From: an uncultured Acidobacteriota bacterium
GTDB lineage: Bacteria > Acidobacteriota > UBA6911
Assembly: GCA_963843575.1 (NCBI GenBank)
Contig: CAWJKZ010000010.1
Span: 581,851-645,850, forward strand
Length of the DNA: 64,000 nt
Reading direction: 5' to 3'
Part shown: piece after piece, positions 3,315 through 61,078 of the stretch
Position numbering within the stretch: the first letter of the stretch is position 1
Layout of the letters: each line of letters opens with the position of its first letter
The notes under the pieces: generated by a model
The model's input: only the letters and a program-made list of their open reading frames with translations
Told to the model about the DNA's origin: nothing
The model's database searches: none
Translations under genes and position numbers: made by a program

Positions 3315-4181
3315 CTATCGCGGCACCTTGATGCCGTGGATGCGGGCGATGGTCAGGCCGTAGGACTTCGCGCGCGTCTCCTCCGGCACGCCGCAGGCGT
3401 CGAGCATCTTGTCGAAGCGCCTGATGTTCTCTTCGAAGGCTTCGGGCCCCTCGTCCGTGGCGAACAGGATCTTCTCGAAGGCGGGCATCGCGTCGGCCGG
3501 CATGTGCGCCTTGCCGAGATAGGGAGTCCACCAGAGGAATTGCTTCCAGTACCCCGGATCTTCTTCTTTCTTGATCAGGGACGAACCGGACAGATCGAAG
3601 AACAGGTTGTTGTTCCGGCGCGTCGCCTCCCCCGCCTCGTCGTACCAGGGATTGCCAAAGTGAGCGGAGTGGATGACGAGCTTAGGGAAACGCGACGCGA
3701 CGGTGGCGAGAAACGACGGACGCATGCGCGCCATCATGCCGTTGGCCAGGATCCCCGTGTGCGGCGCCACCGGCATCCCGAGTTCCTGTGCGAGTGTCCA
3801 GATGGGGTCGTACTTGGGGTCGTCGTAATTCCACTGCCGCGTCGCGAACAGCTCGCCCAACCCCTTGAAACCCATGGAACGGGCCTTCTTGATGTCCGCC
3901 GTCACGGTCGCGCTGTCGATGTCGATCGCCGCATACGGGATCACCCGGTCCGGGTGCGCTTTGGCAAAGGCGATGCCGCGCTGCAGGTCCTTCATGCCGA
4001 TCAGGACGCACCCCATCGCGTTATGCTTGCCGTATACCGAGAGGAAGGATTTCTCCCAATCGTCGGCGGCGCGGTAGTGCGTGTGCGAATCGATGATGAA
4101 ACCGGGCGTCTTCCCCGGCGTCTGCGCCCACCCGAAGCTCACCACAATCAGAACGCCAGCAATGACAGAGACTCGTCTCAT
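3315..4181 (-). CDS. Amidohydrolase_2 family protein with signal peptide
   Basis: IIDSHTH, GFKGLGE, PHTG, AHFGNPW, KILFATD. Confidence 0.88.
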   Translation of the reverse strand: MRRVSVIAGVLIVVSFGWAQTPGKTPGFIIDSHTHYRAADDWEKSFLSVYGKHNAMGCVLIGMKDLQRGIAFAKAHPDRVIPYAAIDIDSATVTADIKKARSMGFKGLGELFATRQWNYDDPKYDPIWTLAQELGMPVAPHTGILANGMMARMRPSFLATVASRFPKLVIHSAHFGNPWYDEAGEATRRNNNLFFDLSGSSLIKKEEDPGYWKQFLWWTPYLGKAHMPADAMPAFEKILFATDEGPEAFEENIRRFDKMLDACGVPEETRAKSYGLTIARIHGIKVPR

Positions 4182-4904: not shown

Positions 4905-5489
<585 letters not shown>

Positions 5490-5521
5490 TGCGAGCGTGC
5501 CCCGACTTTAGCGCAAAACAA

Positions 5522-5620
5522 GTGGGTCCGGGCTTCAGCCCGGACGCGGTTGCTATAACCTGCGCCCGTCGCCACGTAGATCAGATCAAAAGACGTCCGG
5601 GCTGAAGCCCGAACCCACTT
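5522..5620. repeat. REPIN-like element: two inverted REP palindromes
   Basis: GTGGGTCCGGGCTTCAGCCCGGAC ... GTCCGGGCTGAAGCCCGAACCCAC; partial copy also at 4243-4258. Confidence 0.8.
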
Positions 5621-35280: not shown

Positions 35281-35934
35281 CTCATTCCAAATGACTTCCC
35301 GCCTTTCTGAAATCTCATTTCTCACCGGCTGACGGGTTTACTTGCGCGTTACTTGCGTTTTTCCCCGCGATTTTGCCATCCAGCCTGTCCACGGCCTCGC
35401 TGGTTTCCGGCGGCATCCAGTGCTTGTATTGCTCGATCATGAACGCCACGGAGGCGTGCCCCAGCTGTTCCTTGACCCACACGGGACTCGTCCCGGCGTT
35501 AAGGTGTAGGGTGGCAAACGTGTGCCAGAAAGTTGGTGTAGTGGAACGCATTATGAAAGCCCGCCGCGTGATATCGGCATTTATACATTGAAGGCCGGCT
35601 GTCTGGCGACAGCCCAGGGGCTCTGCCCCTGGCCCCGGGATTTTGTGAGGCATGACTCTGGTGTCCGATAGATAAATGAGGCCTCTGACGATTGTTAGTC
35701 GCCAGAGGCCCGATGCACCATCGGCGCACCGTCGGCCTGACTATCCCTTGCCGGGTTGCGTCCCCGCAGAGCCCGACGCCGTTTCGTCAGGCGGGCCCAG
35801 TCTAGCACGTAGGAGATTGCAGTTTTGAAGATTTGGTCGCGAGCATAGAAGACATCATGAAAAGAAGACGCTCCAACAGCGGTAAGATTGGGATCGGTTC
35901 AAGACACCACTCAAAACCGCCAAAGGAGCGTCTG

Positions 35935-36987
35935 ATGAAAAAGTATATCGGCATGGATGTCCACAAAGCAACAACGGTGATAGCGGTTATCGGTGAGTCG
36001 GGCAAAAGGATTACTGACGGCGTGGTGGAAACATCCCCAGAGGCAATCCTGGATTTCATCAACGGGCAGCGCGGGGCGCTGCATGTCACTCTGGAGGAGT
36101 GCGCACAGGCGGCCTGGCTTTATGACATACTCCGACCTTACGTCGCAGACGTGTTGGTCTGCGATCCACGCAAGATCGCCAAGGCAAGTAACAAGGCAGA
36201 CAAGTCCGATGCTGCGCGGCTGGCGGAGTTGCTTCGCACGAATGCGCTGACGCGAGTCTACCATGGCGAACAGAGCACTCTGGGATTGAAGGAACTCGCG
36301 CAGGGGTACGCCTGTTTAATCGAGGACAGGACCAGGGTCAAAAATCGCCTGAAGGCTTTGTTCCGGGCCCGCGGGATACCTTGTGAAGGCGCCGGAGTCT
36401 ACGGTCTTGAGGAACGGGAGGAGTGGCTGGCGAAACTGGACTCGGCAGCCGTGCGTGTCCGAGCTGGACGACTCTGCAATCAACTTGACTGCGCCGACTG
36501 GCTGTCGATAGAAGCGGAGCAGGAACTGACAGCTGAGGCACGGAAACATCCCGCTACAAAGATACTTCGCAGCATACCTGGAATCGGGTATGTGCGCGCC
36601 GCTGTAATCATCGGCGTCGCTGGTACTCCGCACCGATTTCGAACCAAGAGACAGTTCTGGAGTTACTGCGGGCTGGGTGTACGAACCGAGGCCAGTTCGG
36701 AATACAAGATGCTCGCCGGGAAGGTCGTTCGATCCAACAGGCGGCCGCTTGTCCGCGGCTTGAATCAAAACTACAGCCGGGCGCTGAAGTCTGTGTTCAA
36801 GAGCGCGGCCAGGACTGTTGCCTCAGGACCGTGGCGGTCATATTTCGAGGCCATGATCGAAAACGGCACCCCTGAATCACTGGCATACCTGACTTTGGCG
36901 AGGAAGATTGCGTCGGTCACGCTGGCACTCTGGAAAAGAGGAGAACGCTATAGCCAAAAGAAACTGAAGATACCGCACGCGGCATGA
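35935..36987 (+). CDS. IS110 family recombinase
   Basis: YIGMDVHK, TLEE, KADKSDA (DEDD), SIPGIG, SYCGL, LARKIA. Confidence 0.93.
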   Translation: MKKYIGMDVHKATTVIAVIGESGKRITDGVVETSPEAILDFINGQRGALHVTLEECAQAAWLYDILRPYVADVLVCDPRKIAKASNKADKSDAARLAELLRTNALTRVYHGEQSTLGLKELAQGYACLIEDRTRVKNRLKALFRARGIPCEGAGVYGLEEREEWLAKLDSAAVRVRAGRLCNQLDCADWLSIEAEQELTAEARKHPATKILRSIPGIGYVRAAVIIGVAGTPHRFRTKRQFWSYCGLGVRTEASSEYKMLAGKVVRSNRRPLVRGLNQNYSRALKSVFKSAARTVASGPWRSYFEAMIENGTPESLAYLTLARKIASVTLALWKRGERYSQKKLKIPHAA

Positions 36988-37391
36988 AGCGTCTCGAGGA
37001 CCGACTGAGCAGGTCGGCAATGGTATTCAAATTGAAACCCGAACGAGACGCGAGGTCGAGGGTGAGTCTCAAGAACGCCGTTAGGCCCGGAGATGGAGTC
37101 TCCTTGAAACCATAGGCCCCCTCGCATGACCAAATAAAGCAATAGGCTTCCAAGTCTCAGATAGGACCATGGTCGGCAACACGGCCGCTGTGCTTTGAAA
37201 GTCTCGAACGGATTTGAATTCCGCTGCCCCTTGAACAGCCGGCTTCGTATGCATAGTGCATGCGTTATTCCGGAAGTGTCGCAGGATCAGCAGGGCAGCA
37301 CTGAATGAGCGTTGGCTGGATGTCGTGGACCGAAAAAACGCGCCCTGTTCCTGGGGCGGAAGAGTTTGTCCTTGACATCCGCTTTCATAGG
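36988..37391 (+). ncRNA. Candidate bridge/seek RNA region of IS110 copy 1
   Basis: Conserved stems shared with copy 2; GAACGCCGTT (37073-37082) is the reverse complement of the target; ATAGGAC donor-like motif. Confidence 0.72.
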
Positions 37392-37655
37392 ACGGCGTTC
37401 CGCTTTCCGGGTTGATGAACACCCAGTCCGGCATCTTCTCTCCGCTGGCGAAGCTGTCCCTGGCGAATTGATACGTAGGCCCGTTTCCAACGGCGACGGG
37501 ACTTCCCGGCGGAGGCCATGAAGGCTGCCGAGTCCAGTCGGTAACGGTGATGGGATCCGATCAGCCAGCGGGAACTCGCTGGCAAGGCCAGATCGATATA
37601 GGTTTCATCGGGGTGTGCGGTTTGCCGGTGTCCGTGGCATGTAGGGTTCGAAGAA

Positions 37656-38742
37656 TCAGGCAGCCATCGGCGTCTGATAGAGACCTCGGCAGTGAGGTTG
37701 CCAGCAATAGGAATGGAGATTGGCGACGGCTCGAGCTCTCGACCTGACGTCAGGCGTCCGTCCTTGCAGTGCAGTGTGCGATCGATGATCGTTGAAGAAT
37801 CTCCTGAAATCGAGCAATTTGTTTTCGAGATCCGCCGTCGTCCAGAACAGGGTGCGATCCAGGAATTCACGTCGAATCGTGCCGATGAGTCGTTCCACAA
37901 AGGGATGGGACAGAGGGACATAGGGTACGGTTTTGATCTCGTCGATCTCGAGGATCCGCAGATTGGCTTGCCACTGCCCAAAGCCGATACAGGGGATCAT
38001 GGTCGGAGCTGAGGTGCTTTGGCATCCGGCGTTGCCATCGAATGGCACGTTTGAACATCCGGCAAAGTGCGGGACCATCGACGGTTCCGGCATGGACCCC
38101 GAAGCCGATGATGCGGCGGGTGTATTGATCCATGACGACCAGGACCCAATGGGTCCGCAGGGTGGCCGATTCGCACCTGAACAGATCGATGCTCCAGAGG
38201 CTGTCCTTCATGTGCCCAAGGAAGGTCAGCCAGGACGGACCGCCGGAGTGCTTTTCCGGTCGATAGTGACGGGCGAGAATCCTTCGAACCGTGTCTTTGT
38301 CGATTGGGATGCCGAAAGCCAGGGCGATCTGCTGAGCGATGCGGGGACAACCCCAGGCGGGATTGTGCTGCTTCATCTGGACGACAGCTTCAACAAGTTC
38401 CTGATTGGGTCCTTTGGGACCGGGTCTGCGTCTCGCTCGGGATGAGAAAAGGAAGCGATATTTTCGGTTTCTCAGGGCCTGATGAAGGCTCAAAAGGGTG
38501 GAAGGTTTGAGAACGATTGCCGCACGGATCAGGCGGGTGGGCCGAATGAGAAGAGCGCACAAACCGGCGACCAGGCGGTCGGATGTGCGGAGATTGGGTG
38601 CTCGATGCCGCGATCGATTGAGGATCAGGAGTTGGTGTTTGACGAGAACGGACTCGGCGACCACCGAACGGAGGCCGCCCGGCCCCAGCAGCCGGGTGAG
38701 GGTGGCGACGACATGGACGAAAAGGATGAGGAGATGGCGCAT
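37656..38742 (-). CDS. rve integrase-core transposase (frameshift near 37985)
   Basis: LVKHQLLILNR, NPAWGCPRIA, WSIDLF, SSDHDP, PFVERLIGTIRRE. Confidence 0.85.
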
Positions 38743-55215: not shown

Positions 55216-57559
55216 GACCTCCTGACATAGGCGCCTATTGAATTGTCCTCTTATGGCACGGCCGACCGAGTTCCACCGCGTAGCGGAGACGGAGGCGGGA
55301 TCCAGGGAACGTGGCCGCGCTGAGGTTCAGTTCCTCGCAGAGTGCTGCAATTGCCTTGGAGCGATGCGGCGAGCTGAGGGGAGCCAACGTGACGTGGAGT
55401 TCTTCCGTCGTGACCCGGAGATTCCCGGTACACGCGAGGGCAGACTGGATCAACGTACGGCCTTCGTCGGCCGCCCGCTTGTAGTGAGGCGCCACGAGAT
55501 GCACGAGATCACTCTCGGCCTGGTAAGCGACCATCTTGATGATGTTCGTGAACAGTTTATGTTCCGGTGCAAGCTGGACCACCTCGTCCGCGACGACACT
55601 GGCGACGGGAACCCGCTTGGGCAGAGCCGATCGCGCCACTTCGAGGTTCGAGATGCAGTCGAATGCCTTCCGGATACGATTTGCGAGGTTGGATTGCGCA
55701 ATCTTGAATCCTCGCATCGTCGGTCGGGACTGTTCAGGGTTGATGAAGGCCTCGGCTCCGTATTCTGCGGTGAGGCGATTAAACTCGGCGCGCACCGCCT
55801 CGAGTTGCGCCGTCATCTCGGCTCTTTTGGGGTTGGGCACCTCCCGCGCCGGGTCCGCGGCAACAGCGCCGTAGTCCGCCAAGGCATCCAGCGCGTACTC
55901 CTCGCGGAGATATTTGAAGAAGTTCTCCTGCGTCCACCGCTCAAACATCCGGAAGGCGACCTCGATGGCCGGGATGTCCCGGCGGGAAGTCAGAATGGGG
56001 GTCTGGTGTCCATCCTCAACGAGACGCGTCACCTGGCGCAGCCGGAGCTTGCCTTTCAGCAAGCGAACCCCCTGATCCGCCAATGTGTAAGCCACCTTGC
56101 GACCATGGATGACCGCCTCGTGTCGACTGAAGTGCGCTCGGGCTATACGCCGGATGCGCCCCTTTCGATACGTGAGAATGTCGAACCCGTCAGCGATGAG
56201 CTCCAGAAAAAGCTTCGGGCTGTACCCGCCGCGGTCAAACGCCACGGTAACCCGCCGCTCACCCACGAGCGAGCGCACCTCCTGGAGCAGGACAGGCAAC
56301 ATCTTTGTCAGTCCGGCATTGGCTTCCGCAGTGACGACAAAAAGCGGGTCGCCGACCGCATCATTGACCCAGTAGTCGGTCGTGGCCGGCATCGACAGAC
56401 GCATCCGCGCGACGTGAGCCTTGGGCAGGGTCCGCTTGCCGTGATAGACCCGCACGTGTCCATCCACATAAAGGAATCCCATGGCGGCTCCTCGCTCTGC
56501 GACGCGCTTTTGCGCCAGAGCTCTTCCGAAGTCGGCGGCCCGACCGGATGCAGCCAGCCGGTCGAGCTTGCGCCGCATCGTCTTGACCTCGGGAGCACGA
56601 TCGAGGCCAAGAACGCGTCCCAGATCATCCGGCGCATGCTCTTTGAGTGCCTCGGGGCGCTTGATCCTCAGCAGCGCCATCAACACCAAAGCCATGAGAG
56701 TCGTGCGAAGACCGTAGAAGGCCGGGCCGATGCTGCCATAGACGCTCCGGGCAATCGCAAAGACGCCGCTCGCCACCAGGGCCGGCACCGCCAGCAGCAC
56801 GCCGGCATGGGGCACACGGGCTTCGGCACAGAACAGCGGTGCCGCATCGTCCAGGAGTCCCAGACAGGCAAGGATGCGATCCACGCGCCGATCGGAAGGA
56901 TCCGCATCGAACGATATCGGAACCGGTTCTGCGGCATCAGCGACAAAAGTGGACACGCTTGGGTCCCCGCCCGGCGAGGGTCTTACGGATGCCGTAACCG
57001 CCTGCTTGGATTGAAAAGGGGACAGGTTTGGGTCCCCACCCGACGGCGCCAGCGGCAAGCGGACCTGTTCGGGTTCGTGGTCGTGCCAACCCGACCGCTT
57101 CAAGAGTTTCCTGACCGCTTTCGGAGTGACGCCGAGCCGACGGGCCACCTCACGGTTCGCCAGACCCTCATCCTTGAGTCGATGGACCATCTGTACGCGC
57201 GAGCGCGTCAATCGGGGGCGTCCCGCAGGATACCCGTCCCGGTGGCCGAGCGCAGTCAAGCCGCCTGCGGCGAATCGAAGTTGATGCCGACGAACCGTGC
57301 GTACGGAACACCGGAACGCTCGTGCTACTTCCCGCTGGCTTGCCCAGCCCTGTTCCACGAGACTGACCATCGCGTAGGACTCCGCCATACGGTCGGCAAT
57401 ATCGTACTGGGCCAGGACGATACCGGAGACGACAACGACTCGGTTGCCCAGATCCGTGCGAACCGTGCAACGGTCATTGACGACAATGGAGCCGGCATCC
57501 TTGACCGGTTGAACGAACAGACTCTGTTGCCTTTGTGCTCCCGCCATGACAGGAGCATC
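55216..57559 (-). mobile_element. Unclassified IS with a large DDE transposase
   Basis: Imperfect terminal IR GACCTCCTGACAT / ATGACAGGAGCATC flanking the ORF. Confidence 0.6.
55235..57547 (-). CDS. Putative DDE transposase with N-terminal HTHs (~770 aa)
   Basis: LYVDGHVRVY, AFDRGGYS, RWTQENFFKY. Confidence 0.82.
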   Translation of the reverse strand: MAGAQRQQSLFVQPVKDAGSIVVNDRCTVRTDLGNRVVVVSGIVLAQYDIADRMAESYAMVSLVEQGWASQREVARAFRCSVRTVRRHQLRFAAGGLTALGHRDGYPAGRPRLTRSRVQMVHRLKDEGLANREVARRLGVTPKAVRKLLKRSGWHDHEPEQVRLPLAPSGGDPNLSPFQSKQAVTASVRPSPGGDPSVSTFVADAAEPVPISFDADPSDRRVDRILACLGLLDDAAPLFCAEARVPHAGVLLAVPALVASGVFAIARSVYGSIGPAFYGLRTTLMALVLMALLRIKRPEALKEHAPDDLGRVLGLDRAPEVKTMRRKLDRLAASGRAADFGRALAQKRVAERGAAMGFLYVDGHVRVYHGKRTLPKAHVARMRLSMPATTDYWVNDAVGDPLFVVTAEANAGLTKMLPVLLQEVRSLVGERRVTVAFDRGGYSPKLFLELIADGFDILTYRKGRIRRIARAHFSRHEAVIHGRKVAYTLADQGVRLLKGKLRLRQVTRLVEDGHQTPILTSRRDIPAIEVAFRMFERWTQENFFKYLREEYALDALADYGAVAADPAREVPNPKRAEMTAQLEAVRAEFNRLTAEYGAEAFINPEQSRPTMRGFKIAQSNLANRIRKAFDCISNLEVARSALPKRVPVASVVADEVVQLAPEHKLFTNIIKMVAYQAESDLVHLVAPHYKRAADEGRTLIQSALACTGNLRVTTEELHVTLAPLSSPHRSKAIAALCEELNLSAATFPGSRLRLRYAVELGRPCHKRTIQ

Positions 57560-57847
57560 GTAAGCGGTCCTATGAAAGCGGATGTCAAGGATAGTTTTCT
57601 CCCTCCCAGGGATAGGGAGTTTTTCTTGAGCCTCGACATCCAGCCAATGCTCGAATGGCAACCCTGCTGATCCCTGCGAACCACGCTCGTTATCGCGCAC
57701 ACGTTGGATCGAGAGCAAGAACTGCTCAGGAACTGCGGGGACCAAATCCCTTCGAGACATTTAAAGCACAGCGGCGGTTTTGCCAACCACGGTCCTATCA
57801 GAGACTTGAAAGCCTATTGCTTTATTCGGTCGTGCGAGGGGGCCTAG

Positions 57848-59167
57848 CAGGATGCTGAAATATCGCGAGTTTCGGTAGTTTTGTCTCTTCAATACGGCTC
57901 TTGACGACTTCATGCTCAGAGAATTCAATGCATTTGAGGCGCGAACCTGGGGTGGTGCACCTCGAATTTGTCCCCAGCAGGGACTTTCCCCGCTCTCATG
58001 CAGGAACCTGCATCAGATTTCGCATCCTTACCAAGTTGTATATCGCAACTCCGAAGGTAAACATCCAGCCGACGCGAGCGGTCCCGCGGTGCCGCGTCTT
58101 GCGCAACATGCCGACCGTCTTCATCCAGCCGAAGATCTCCTCGACACGTTTCCGCTTTCTTTGACTGATCGGATACCCGGGATGGCGTGTGGTTCGGCTG
58201 TCAATCGCACTCGATCTATTTTTGGTGTTTTGGGCAACGTGAGGCGTTGCTTCCAGAGCACGTACCTGTTCGACGAACTCTCTCGTGTCGTATGCCTTAT
58301 CTCCGCCAACGGTGATGCGCTTTCTCACCGGCATCTCGCCAAGCATATCGACGGCAGCCTCTCTTTCGGCAGTCCCCGTAGCTCTCGTCACTCGTGCGTT
58401 GACGACAAGACCATTGCGGTTTTCCATCAGCAAATGGCCCAGGTAGCAGAGCTTCGACTCCTGCCCCTTAGCTTTTTTGTACAACCTCGCATCCGGATCG
58501 GTCGTCGATTGGTGCGTCTCGTTCGTTCTCTTTTCATTCTTGAAATCAACAGTCGGGTTCCCAGGATCATCGCTGGAGCTGCCAGTACCGCGGCCCCTCT
58601 CCTTGAAGCTCTTCTGCCCAGCCCAGGCCTCGATCAGGGTTCCATCCACCGTGAAATGCTCATCCGAGAGAAGCCGCTGTTCCCGAGCATGAACGAGAAC
58701 CCTTTCAAAGAAAGCTCGGGCGATGTCGCCTTCGAGAAGTCGATCCCGATTCTTGCTGAAAACCGTGGCGTCCCAGATCTCGTCATCCATGCTCAATCCC
58801 ACAAACCAGCGAAACAACAGGTTGTAGTCAAGCTGCTCCATCAGCAACCGCTCACTACGCACGGAGTACAGCACCTGGAGCAAAAGAGCCCGAAGAAGTC
58901 TCTCTGGCGCAATCGACGGGCGACCGACTCTGGCATAAAGTCCTTCAAAGCGCGGCGACAAGTCCTTCAGAATTACATCGACCATAGTCCGGACGGTCCT
59001 CAGCGGATGATCCTTGGGCACTCGTTTCTCCGCCGAGATGTAACTGAACATCCAGTCCTGTCTTTCGTCGGGTCCGCGCATCAATCGTCTCCTTTGGAGG
59101 AACTTCAGAGAGGTTCATCAATAAAGATGCACGAAACCGCAATTGGTTGGAGTTTTTCAGCATCCTG
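57848..59167 (-). mobile_element. IS5 family element
   Basis: IR CAGGATGCTGAAA / TTTCAGCATCCTG; CTAG target duplication at 57844-57847 and 59168-59171. Confidence 0.92.
57996..59084 (-). CDS. IS5 family transposase
   Basis: GRPSIAPE, TVDGTLI, STTDPDA, GDKAYD, RKRVEEIFGWMK. Confidence 0.95.
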   Translation of the reverse strand: MMRGPDERQDWMFSYISAEKRVPKDHPLRTVRTMVDVILKDLSPRFEGLYARVGRPSIAPERLLRALLLQVLYSVRSERLLMEQLDYNLLFRWFVGLSMDDEIWDATVFSKNRDRLLEGDIARAFFERVLVHAREQRLLSDEHFTVDGTLIEAWAGQKSFKERGRGTGSSSDDPGNPTVDFKNEKRTNETHQSTTDPDARLYKKAKGQESKLCYLGHLLMENRNGLVVNARVTRATGTAEREAAVDMLGEMPVRKRITVGGDKAYDTREFVEQVRALEATPHVAQNTKNRSSAIDSRTTRHPGYPISQRKRKRVEEIFGWMKTVGMLRKTRHRGTARVGWMFTFGVAIYNLVRMRNLMQVPA

Positions 59168-59296
59168 CTAGAGTAAGTTAGAGACTCGTTTTTGCCGGCC
59201 TAACCGCTTACGTGAGACTCACCCTCGACCTCGCGTCTCGTCCGGAAATCGACTTGGATCCCACAGCTGACTCGCTCAGTCAGCTCTCGAGACGCT

Positions 59297-60355: not shown

Positions 60356-60755
60356 GGGGCGCTCCTTTAGGGATTTGGTTTTGGTGCTTGAACTCACTTC
60401 AACCTTATCACTTTTGGAACGCCCTTTTTTCATGATGCGTATTACAATCCCTTTCGTCTGGTGAAACGGAGCCAGGCTCTGCGGGGACGCAACCTGACAA
60501 GGGATAGCCAGACCGACGGTGCGCCGATGGTGCATCTGGGCCTCTGACGAAATCAGCCGCCAGAGGCCTTCGTCTTTTTAACCATCGGACACCGGAGCCA
60601 TGCCTCCGAAAATCCCGGGGTCAGGGGCAGAGCCCCTCGGCTGTCGCCCCGACAGCCGCCCTTACAGCACCCATGTCAATTGCATGGGCGCGCTTTCATA
60701 ATGCGTAAGCCAGGCACATCTACCGCCGGGCGCGGCGCAGCGATAGGCTGCGCGC

Positions 60756-61078
60756 ATGGAACCTGAACGAATCACCCGCTGTTACCTGAAACCCGAAGAA
60801 CGCCGACGAATCGCCGAACGCTGCGAGAGCAGTGGGCTGAGCCGGAGCGAGTTCGCCAGGCGCCACCAAATCTCCCTCTCGAGCCTGGAGCGATGGCTCT
60901 CCGAGGCGCGCAACGCGCCCAAGGAGGTCCCGGCCGTCGTGTTCCGGGAGGTCACGGTTTCTCCGTCGCGCCCGGATGGGCGGTCGAAGTCGTCGGTCCG
61001 GACGGCATGACTGTCCGCTGCCGTGAAGGATGGTCTATCGAGGATCTTGCCCGGCTCCTGCGGGGTCGCCCATGCTGA
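60756..61078 (+). CDS. tnpA: IS66 TnpA (frameshifted)
   Basis: ESSGLSRSEFARRH..LERW, FREV. Confidence 0.75.

Follow-up and report, generated by a model that had tools for sequence, protein, structure and literature searches.

We analyzed a stretch of 64,000 nucleotides (nt) from an uncultured Acidobacteriota bacterium (GenBank assembly GCA_963843575.1, contig CAWJKZ010000010.1, positions 581,851 to 645,850 of the forward strand; hereafter the window), in which two insertion sequence (IS) elements of the IS110 family, copy 1 and copy 2, are found. Both loci are very probably members of the IS1111 group of this family that carry a bridge RNA (or seekRNA) downstream of the recombinase gene, with strands expected to be exchanged at an AC dinucleotide. 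An initial annotation of the window had already proposed an RNA-guided, programmable recombinase, and in our assessment it appears right in kind and wrong in its claims of novelty. Every coordinate it quoted checks out, and all of the conserved blocks it named occur in both copies.

That annotation had treated the loci as two copies of one IS110 element; they are instead two related element types, with recombinases 70% identical. The genome from which the window derives contains six such elements: three of type A, two of type B and one of type C. The three type A elements, copy 1 among them, are identical and sit at different sites, which argues for recent activity of this type, and copy 1 itself looks active from its sequence. 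Type B has 85% DNA identity and 87% protein identity to type A, and the single type C element is copy 2 of the window. Because recombinases only 70% identical mark separate elements, sequence blocks conserved between the two copies carry weight. The anatomy of both is as follows (LE and RE, left and right end; aa, amino acids).

35546-35547, + strand: left AC core of copy 1, the last two bases of the left target half
35548-37391, + strand: copy 1 (type A), with AC on each side (35546-35547 and 37392-37393)
35548-35560, + strand: LE of copy 1, GCAT followed by TATGAAAGC (35552-35560), with a -10-like CATTAT at 35549-35554
35935-36987, + strand: copy 1 recombinase gene, 350 aa, Pfam domains DEDD_Tnp_IS110 and Transposase_20
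37046-37182, + strand: predicted bridge/seek RNA scaffold of copy 1, a covariance-model match of 125.5 bits
37057-37069, + strand: CGAGGG (37057-37062) and GTCT (37066-37069), the 5' arms of the stems that close the target loop, with compensatory changes AU to CG or GC and AU to CG
37073-37081, + strand: right-target guide GAACGCCGT, complementary to AC plus GGCGTTC
37083-37101, + strand: target-loop inner hairpin, variable in length and sequence among relatives
37104-37110, + strand: left-target guide TTGAAAC, which has the orientation of the left flank with its core (GAAAC)
37114-37124, + strand: 3' strands of the target-loop closing stems, AGGC (37114-37117), a bulged C and CCCTCG (37119-37124); the block TAGGCCCCCTCGCA of the initial annotation
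37127-37143, + strand: 5' strand of the donor-loop closing stem, TGACCA (37127-37132), and right-donor guide AATAAAGCAAT (37133-37143)
37144-37157, + strand: donor-loop inner hairpin AGGC-TTCCAA-GTCT (37144-37147 with 37154-37157), 98.7% of cells paired
37161-37167, + strand: left-donor guide ATAGGAC, made up of the terminal 5 nt of the right end and the AC core
37170-37175, + strand: 3' strand of the donor-loop closing stem, TGGTCG, which pairs with TGACCA
37341-37358, strand undecided (scored on the - strand): GC-rich terminator-like hairpin just inside the right end
37372-37391, + strand: RE of copy 1, with TTGACA (37372-37377) and GCTTTCATA (37381-37389), stopping at 37391
37392-37400, + strand: right AC core of copy 1 (37392-37393) and right target half GGCGTTC
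60704-57569, - strand: copy 2 (type C), with start and stop points homologous to those of copy 1
60706-60704, - strand: left junction of copy 2, with AC core at 60706-60705 and first LE base at 60704; the flank ends in GCTTAC
60355-59297, - strand: copy 2 recombinase gene; its 352-aa product shares 70% identity with the copy 1 recombinase
59212-59203, - strand: right-target guide of copy 2, CGTAAGCGGT, the reverse complement of AC plus right flank
59179-59173, - strand: left-target guide of copy 2, AACTTAC (left flank ..GCTTAC)
57574-57559, - strand: right end of copy 2, CATAGG (57574-57569), AC core (57568-57567) and right target CGCTTACG (57566-57559)

Target guides, flanks and core

The 10 nt that follow GAGTCTCA are in both copies the reverse complement of the AC core plus the right flank, as the initial annotation had reported. 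In copy 1 they read GAACGCCGTT (37073-37082, +). Within the window ACGGCGTTC occurs only at 37073-37081 (-) and 37392-37400 (+), with about one match per window expected by chance, and ACCGCTTACG only at 59203-59212 (+) and 57559-57568 (-), with 0.09 chance matches expected. The extra 'a' in the copy 1 target as originally reconstructed (a-AC-ggcgttc) fits the left flank in type A and not in types B and C.

The check that had been proposed for this guide, a covariance model with a test of guide/target covariation across homologs, bears it out: the guide tracks the right flank far above chance. Relatives were fetched from species genomes (27 loci, nearly all from Acidobacteriota assemblies) and from metagenomes (80 loci), and identical guide/flank pairs were counted once. 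A text-anchor set comprised 42 of 114 loci, those where text patterns found all anchors; a model-based set comprised 92 of the 95 matches of the covariance model, with split matches excluded (57777-57954 of the window and two in locus L015). Guide and own right flank share a run of at least 7 nt at 33 of 38 loci of the text-anchor set, compared with 0 of 1278 mismatched pairings; in the model-based set, which spans 41 guide clusters, 56 of 71 distinct guide/flank pairs do so, compared with 10 of 4588 mismatched pairings. In the text-anchor set the longest run shared with the own flank averages 8.08 nt, and 3.23 nt for the flanks of other loci.

The guide was originally described as one-sided, a description that has to be given up: a second guide, found about 30 nt downstream of the first, tracks the left flank. 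It lies directly before a conserved block ending in CCCCCTCG, 3 nt ahead of the AGGC/CCCTCG closing stem. The left guides read TTGAAAC in type A (GAAAC), CAGATAC in type B (GATAC) and AACTTAC in type C (CTTAC), and the left flanks read GAAAC, GAAAC and GGAAC in type A, GATAC and AATAC in type B and GCTTAC in type C. Types A and B have a common right guide and right half-site (AC GGCGTT[C]), and their left guides and left flanks differ accordingly. Identity at 4 or more of the 6 nt upstream of the core is seen in 52 of 60 own pairs and in 48 of 3026 mismatched pairs of the model-based set; in the text-anchor set, mean identity over these 6 nt is 4.32 for own and 1.84 for other flanks. Because the left guide varies with the left flank between types, the target appears to be recognised from both sides, the two guides overlapping at AC.

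Homology among all six copies in the genome begins directly after AC, with GCATTATG, and homology between copies 1 and 2 ends on the right with CATAGG, directly before AC; the AC dinucleotide flanks all six copies on both sides. The subterminal inverted repeat TATGAAAGC/GCTTTCATA is perfect over 9 base pairs (bp) and offset by 2, its left arm set in by 4 nt from the tip of the element and its right arm by 2 nt. The TTGACA of the right end is perfect; joined ends would give TTGACA-17 nt-CATTAT, and a promoter at joined ends has been described for this family (PMC11187229 and a review). A scan for sigma-70-type promoters over 35400-37500 returned 0 sites, a result that is uninformative for an Acidobacteriota host.

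The core dinucleotide itself varies among relatives. Left-guide core and left-flank core are the same in 58 of 60 cases (AC 42, AT 15, TC 1). The core agrees in all four places at 45 loci with AC and at 1 locus with TC, and 14 loci with AT agree with three of the four places readable; in this AT subclade left guide, donor guide and right flank are all AT (14 loci with all three). On the sequences compared, the AT, TC and AG cores appear to be natural core reprogramming events, in which the core changed in step in RNA and DNA. The AT subclade, from metagenomes, has the left guide ..TCAAT, the donor guide ATAGGAT and AT junctions (loci L053, L055, L056, L060, L061, L067, L071, L073, L075, L077, L081, L086, L089, L093, L094, L096, L097, L100, L103, L107, L111 and L112). 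Locus L039 carries TC throughout, and locus L027 has AG in both guides, with unreadable flanks.

RNA scaffold, donor loop and recombinase

The scaffold begins 59 nt after the recombinase stop codon, on the same strand. CGAGGG pairs with CCCTCG and GTCT with AGGC, enclosing an internal loop with the right guide on its 5' strand and the left guide on its 3' strand, and the conserved blocks of the initial annotation are the strands of the stems. A covariance model built from 39 sequences gave 95 matches across 98 sources, all of them beside recombinase genes and on the strand of the gene; the downstream placement seen in copy 1 is also that of these matches. In the own genome its six matches are the six elements, with no solitary copy. 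The conserved structured part of the predicted RNA spans 137-180 nt, which is the size class of published long seekRNAs (145-170 nt; PMC11187229) and does not agree with the earlier description of an unusually long RNA.

In the first alignment, the 24 drawn pairs are formed in 92.1% of cells, compared with 30-48% when the partners are slid, and changes on both sides of a pair occur in 49 cells, compared with 18.8 in shuffles. Across 88 distinct model-aligned sequences, an alignment that leans towards the structure, 91.0% of cells are paired and 103 carry changes at both partners. Of the five stems drawn, four have 91-100% of their cells paired. Between the two target guides, 64 of 78 distinct segments form a hairpin that closes at most 3 nt from both ends (mean z -1.76). 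Because G-U pairs are frequent in three of the stems, only the recombinase-sense strand can form the fold. Plain RNAalifold recovered only two stems, and a single-sequence fold of 37040-37200 is no better than shuffles (z -0.19). Rfam 15 gave no match for 35300-37700 on either strand at E of 1 or below, which is not counted against the RNA since the presence of a bridge RNA entry in that release is uncertain. Among public RNA runs none was listed for 35529-37392, a result that speaks neither for nor against expression.

The donor loop can be read from the element ends. The initial annotation had noted a match of the invariant ATAGGAC to the donor (right) end with its core, and this holds widely: the left-donor guide equals the independently located right end plus core at 39 of 39 loci (ATAGG at 18, ATAGA at 21). 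The corresponding tally in the model-based set is circular, as the end was there located by the guide, and was not used. The right-donor guide is only partly complementary to the first bases of LE, with GC facing GC, then a conserved A-A mismatch, then A/T facing T/A, and its position opposite LE base 4 covaries with that base (51 A:T, 8 T:A, 0 discordant, n=59). Discontinuous pairing of the right-donor guide is known from IS621 (PMC11208160). The donor-loop closing stem is 92.7% paired, with 10 both-side changes at one pair. An alternative partner for this stem, GGTC/GGTT 5' of the first stem, reaches 57% pairing, with the column register off in some sequences; by eye, a hairpin just 3' of the scaffold (37170-37187) offers a third possible partner.

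Some further observations concern the region around the scaffold. Between it and the right-end hairpin (37183-37340) copies 1 and 2 share short conserved blocks, among them GCTGTGCTTT and, immediately ahead of the hairpin, GGCTGGATGTCG; these could be a processing or termination signal. At the position of that hairpin, relatives have by eye a hairpin followed by a T run on the + strand. Locus L089 has two scaffolds (1937-2083 and 3623-3774), one of them ahead of the recombinase gene; this suggests elements that lie side by side or one inside the other. At locus L015 the scaffold is split (3618-3713 and 5438-5540) by about 1.7 kb of foreign DNA, much as in copy 2.

The recombinases of both copies have an N-terminal DEDD/RuvC-like domain (PF01548) and a C-terminal domain (PF02371), above Pfam cut-offs, and match NF033542, the 'IS110 family RNA-guided transposase', with 144.7 and 142.2 bits (cut-off 140). 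The initial proposal of IS110-family elements with a 3' non-coding guide complementary to the right target half is supported. In alignments to the IS621 (8wt6) and ISCro4 structures, GL.V....S falls on the IS621 serine motif GL.P....S. D8, E54, D89, D92 and the first S of 'EASS' align with the DEDD and serine residues of IS621, and the N-terminal part of this alignment is weak; these four acidic positions and the serine position are invariant in a nine-sequence recombinase alignment. The C-terminal motif is GL.V....SS in types A to C, and the nine-sequence consensus G.V.T..S. retains the serine and not the P and G. The ATG at 35935 is preceded by the ribosome-binding site AAGGAG. An in-frame upstream ATG at 35857 would add a basic extension of 26 aa (35857-35934; MKRRRSNSGK...), which is conserved in copy 2 and close relatives.

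Proposed mechanism, rival explanations and state of the elements

Taken together, these features outline a mechanism. The DEDD recombinase gene is followed on the same strand by a putative bridge RNA gene, whose RNA would form two internal loops, one for the target and one for the donor. The 5' strand of the target loop would present a guide of 9-10 nt complementary to core and right flank on the top strand, and its 3' strand a guide of 5-7 nt with the sequence of left flank plus core, hence the complement of the bottom strand. The 3' strand of the donor loop would repeat the core together with the 5 nt preceding it at the right end, and its 5' strand would be discontinuously complementary to the first bases of LE. 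The anatomy, the covariation of guides with flanks and ends, the covarying stems and the family of the protein are seen in the sequences; from published relatives we infer that such an RNA is produced, is bound by the recombinase and guides recombination. The complex would bring a circular form of the element together with a target matching both guides and exchange strands at the shared AC, which would be left on both sides of the inserted element. Joining of the ends would create the TTGACA-17 nt-CATTAT promoter.

Several observations weigh against this interpretation. Of the right-guide pairs, 15 of 71 have fewer than 7 contiguous nt, most of them split by one mismatch or a G-U pair, and at loci L071 and L075 the right guide shows no match at all (longest runs of 3 and 2 nt), so that the right end may be mislocated or rearranged there. 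The left half of copy 1 in the window, GGAAC, has one mismatch to the guide GAAAC; locus L041 is without AC at its right junction, and locus L042 has AT in the left guide and AC elsewhere. The shuffle controls overstate significance, since the structure was drawn up from the very sequences tested, which are related to one another, and the target-loop inner stem as drawn in fixed columns pairs in just 64-67% of cells. The complementarity between right-donor guide and LE (GCATTAT) is partial, at 6 of 8 positions by eye in type A, and the covariation at LE base 4 rests on perhaps three independent changes, with an exception by eye at locus L017. The recombinases barely exceed the NCBIfam NF033542 cut-off, and their V and S stand where the published IS1111 motif has P and G.

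Other explanations have to account for the same data. The initial annotation envisaged a single one-sided 10-nt guide on an RNA of about 400 nt, with an architecture that might differ from known bridge RNAs. The right guide is the longer and cleaner one, at 9-10 nt against 5-7 nt, and the whole 3' region may be co-transcribed before processing, with a terminator-like hairpin only at 37341-37358. However, a left guide is present and covaries, types A and B differing solely in this guide with their left flanks following it; conservation is limited to the 137-180 nt; and the layout is that of published IS1111 elements (PMC11187229, PMC11208160), all of which makes the one-sided view very improbable.

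The nature of the recombinase bears on another possibility, namely that the guide segments act as DNA, with single-stranded element DNA pairing with the target. Subterminal guide sequences pair as single-stranded DNA in IS200/IS605 elements, G-T wobble is possible in DNA, and all of our computations were made from DNA sequence. The protein here, however, is a DEDD recombinase classed by NCBIfam as RNA-guided rather than an HUH enzyme, stems flank the internal loops as in solved bridge RNAs, and relatives of the same layout co-purify with RNA of this region and need it (PMC11187229); we give a DNA guide very little credence. That the complementarity is historical or due to chance, an old piece of target having been copied into the element, could not have been excluded from the two window copies, as ACGGCGTTC is expected about once per window. 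It becomes extremely improbable across relatives, where 41 guide clusters each match their own flanks, the guide has a fixed place in a conserved fold, and the core changes in step in guides and junctions.

An unoccupied site was sought with the right flank of copy 1 (37394-37993) against 40 relatives; no unoccupied homologous site was found, the query matching only from its base 259 on, in 3 of these genomes. Perfect 12-nt type A sites without an element number 3 in the genome and 2 for a reversed control, a comparison that is uninformative. A stretch of 75 nt in the right flank of another type A copy (L002; C9:119910-119985) recurs at 97% identity at C14:924787-924861 (L117), with no element beside it; this homology begins exactly at the AC core and hence does not represent a clean empty site. 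The first approximately 20 nt of the stretch also follow a type B copy (right flank of L005, C9:14703-14719), and the stretch may, from its sequence, be the end of another repeat targeted by these elements.

Copy 2 has been disrupted within its RNA gene, and both copies have a further non-coding module at the left.

59167-57848, - strand: IS5-family element of 1320 bp inside the copy 2 RNA gene (NF033581, 296 bits; domains DUF772 and DDE_Tnp_1)
57847-57777, - strand: remainder of the copy 2 RNA, closing-stem 3' strands and donor loop, with ATAGGAC at 57798-57792
35561-35856, + strand: long structured left non-coding module of copy 1, minimum free energy -134 kcal/mol compared with -118 kcal/mol in shuffles (z -2.84)
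60690-60360, - strand: left module of copy 2, with blocks conserved with copy 1

The IS5-family element has short terminal inverted repeats, a CTAG duplicated at 59171-59168 and 57847-57844, and a transposase open reading frame (ORF) at 59084-57996 (-). It is inserted between the left-target guide and the closing stem of copy 2. Because it intervenes, the right flank of copy 2 lies 1.7 kb from the guide, and the 3' non-coding region, given initially as about 400 nt in both copies, is about 1.7 kb here. The RNA remainder belongs to a covariance-model match (57777-57954) of just 58.7 bits. Split between left guide and closing stem, the copy 2 RNA cannot form the target loop, and copy 2 is probably immobile. 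Excision in the IS1111 group requires flanks that match the RNA (PMC11187229); with its own RNA split and the type A and B RNAs specifying other flanks, copy 2 would be stuck in place. The insertion is a case of one mobile element disabling the guide of another. Mobile DNA surrounds copy 2 more widely. Its right flank runs into an 841-aa frame (55235-57760, -) with Transposase_29 and helix-turn-helix (HTH) domains; this transposase gene appears to be interrupted by copy 2, because its first codons lie inside the right end of copy 2. On the other side (60707-61010) a small + strand ORF starts at 60756.

Two hairpins of the left module, at 35617-35636 (+) and 35711-35679 (-), resemble terminators. 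Outside copy 1, the blocks of the module are conserved only in copy 2 and in the four metagenome loci L035, L037, L039 and L040, and most relatives have approximately 50-100 nt in its place. A tentative and rather unlikely proposal, drawn from sequence, is that 35561-35856 acts as a transcriptional gate or encodes a second functional RNA of the element. Such a module could stop or sense transcripts from the junction promoter and so couple the output of recombinase and bridge RNA to circle formation. If so, IS1111-type elements would gain a layer of regulation that has not been described for them, a statement made without a literature search on such a module.

Significance and relation to known systems

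The mechanism has been in print since 2024, and the finding leaves existing knowledge unchanged. Its value lies in the data: a previously uncharacterised, distant IS1111-type clade from Acidobacteriota and soil-type metagenomes, which offers a two-loop RNA model, 41 right-guide clusters and 48 different left guides, a natural change of a single half-guide between types A and B of one genome, and natural core swaps among AC, AT and TC in step between guides and junctions. It is raw material for mining and engineering the less studied IS1111-type bridge recombinases, and may aid the annotation of Acidobacteriota genomes. Among the matches listed in a literature search, no paper joined Acidobacteri* with bridge or seek RNA; supplements of PMC11187229 and PMC11208160 may list relatives, and we make no wider claim.

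Assignment to the IS1111 group rests on architecture rather than phylogeny; pairwise matches to ISEc11 (IS1111 group) and to IS621 and ISCro4 (IS110 group) are weak to a similar degree. For the IS1111 group, 7-17 bp is the reported length of the subterminal inverted repeats (PMC11208160), and the repeat here is 9 bp. Transposases of the group have 330-350 aa and the C-terminal motif GL-P----S(T)G (PMC11187229); the length of 350-352 aa found here agrees with this range, and of the motif the serine is kept and the P and G are not. A bridge RNA is predicted in the right end of 93% of IS1111 elements (PMC11208160), and the guide RNA region of our elements lies downstream of the recombinase gene. 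Copy 1 has in addition a long upstream non-coding region, and elements with a double non-coding region (NCR) are reported for 26 of about 350 IS (PMC11187229). Read 5' to 3', IS1111 seekRNAs carry the top-strand match ahead of the bottom-strand match (PMC11187229), and here too the segment complementary to the top strand precedes that complementary to the bottom strand; ISEc11, in an E. coli plasmid sequence, has by eye the same guide order.

The closest counterparts in layout are the seekRNA elements ISEc11, ISPa11, ISKpn4 and ISPst6 (PMC11187229), which likewise have a 3' non-coding region, subterminal repeats and a recombinase of approximately 340-350 aa. As described there, ISEc11-type elements also share the guide order, the overlap of guides at the crossover, an RNA form of 145-170 nt and a promoter that arises only on joining of the ends. 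Unlike these, the elements described here encode a recombinase that is 27% identical to that of ISEc11 over the C-terminal 170 aa only, and at most 30% identical to any plasmid-borne relative; its motif is GL.V....SS instead of the published GL.P....S(T)G (PMC11187229). They further differ in the long structured left module of the closest subclade and in their Acidobacteriota host. ISPpu9 of Pseudomonas putida is also an IS110-family element with a small-RNA gene, Ssr9, downstream of its transposase (PMC12288879); in that system extra solitary ssr9 copies are reported, whereas the genome analyzed here has no solitary scaffold.

With IS621 and ISCro4 (PMC11208160; PDB 8wt6, 9t56), the elements share target and donor internal loops, left guides in the same sense and right guides complementary, all including the core. 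As in IS621 (PMC11208160), the right-donor guide would pair discontinuously, and the DEDD residues and catalytic serine align; only the C-terminal domain aligns significantly with IS621 and ISCro4 (E 2e-5 and 6e-7). The suggestion that the architecture may differ from IS621 was correct as to guide order and position relative to the gene, although this difference had already been published for the IS1111 group (PMC11187229, PMC11208160). The predicted RNA follows the gene in the right end, rather than preceding it in the left end as in IS621 and ISCro4; the right guide stands ahead of the left guide in each loop; the repeats are 9 bp instead of 2-3 bp; and the core is AC (AT, TC or AG in relatives) instead of CT.

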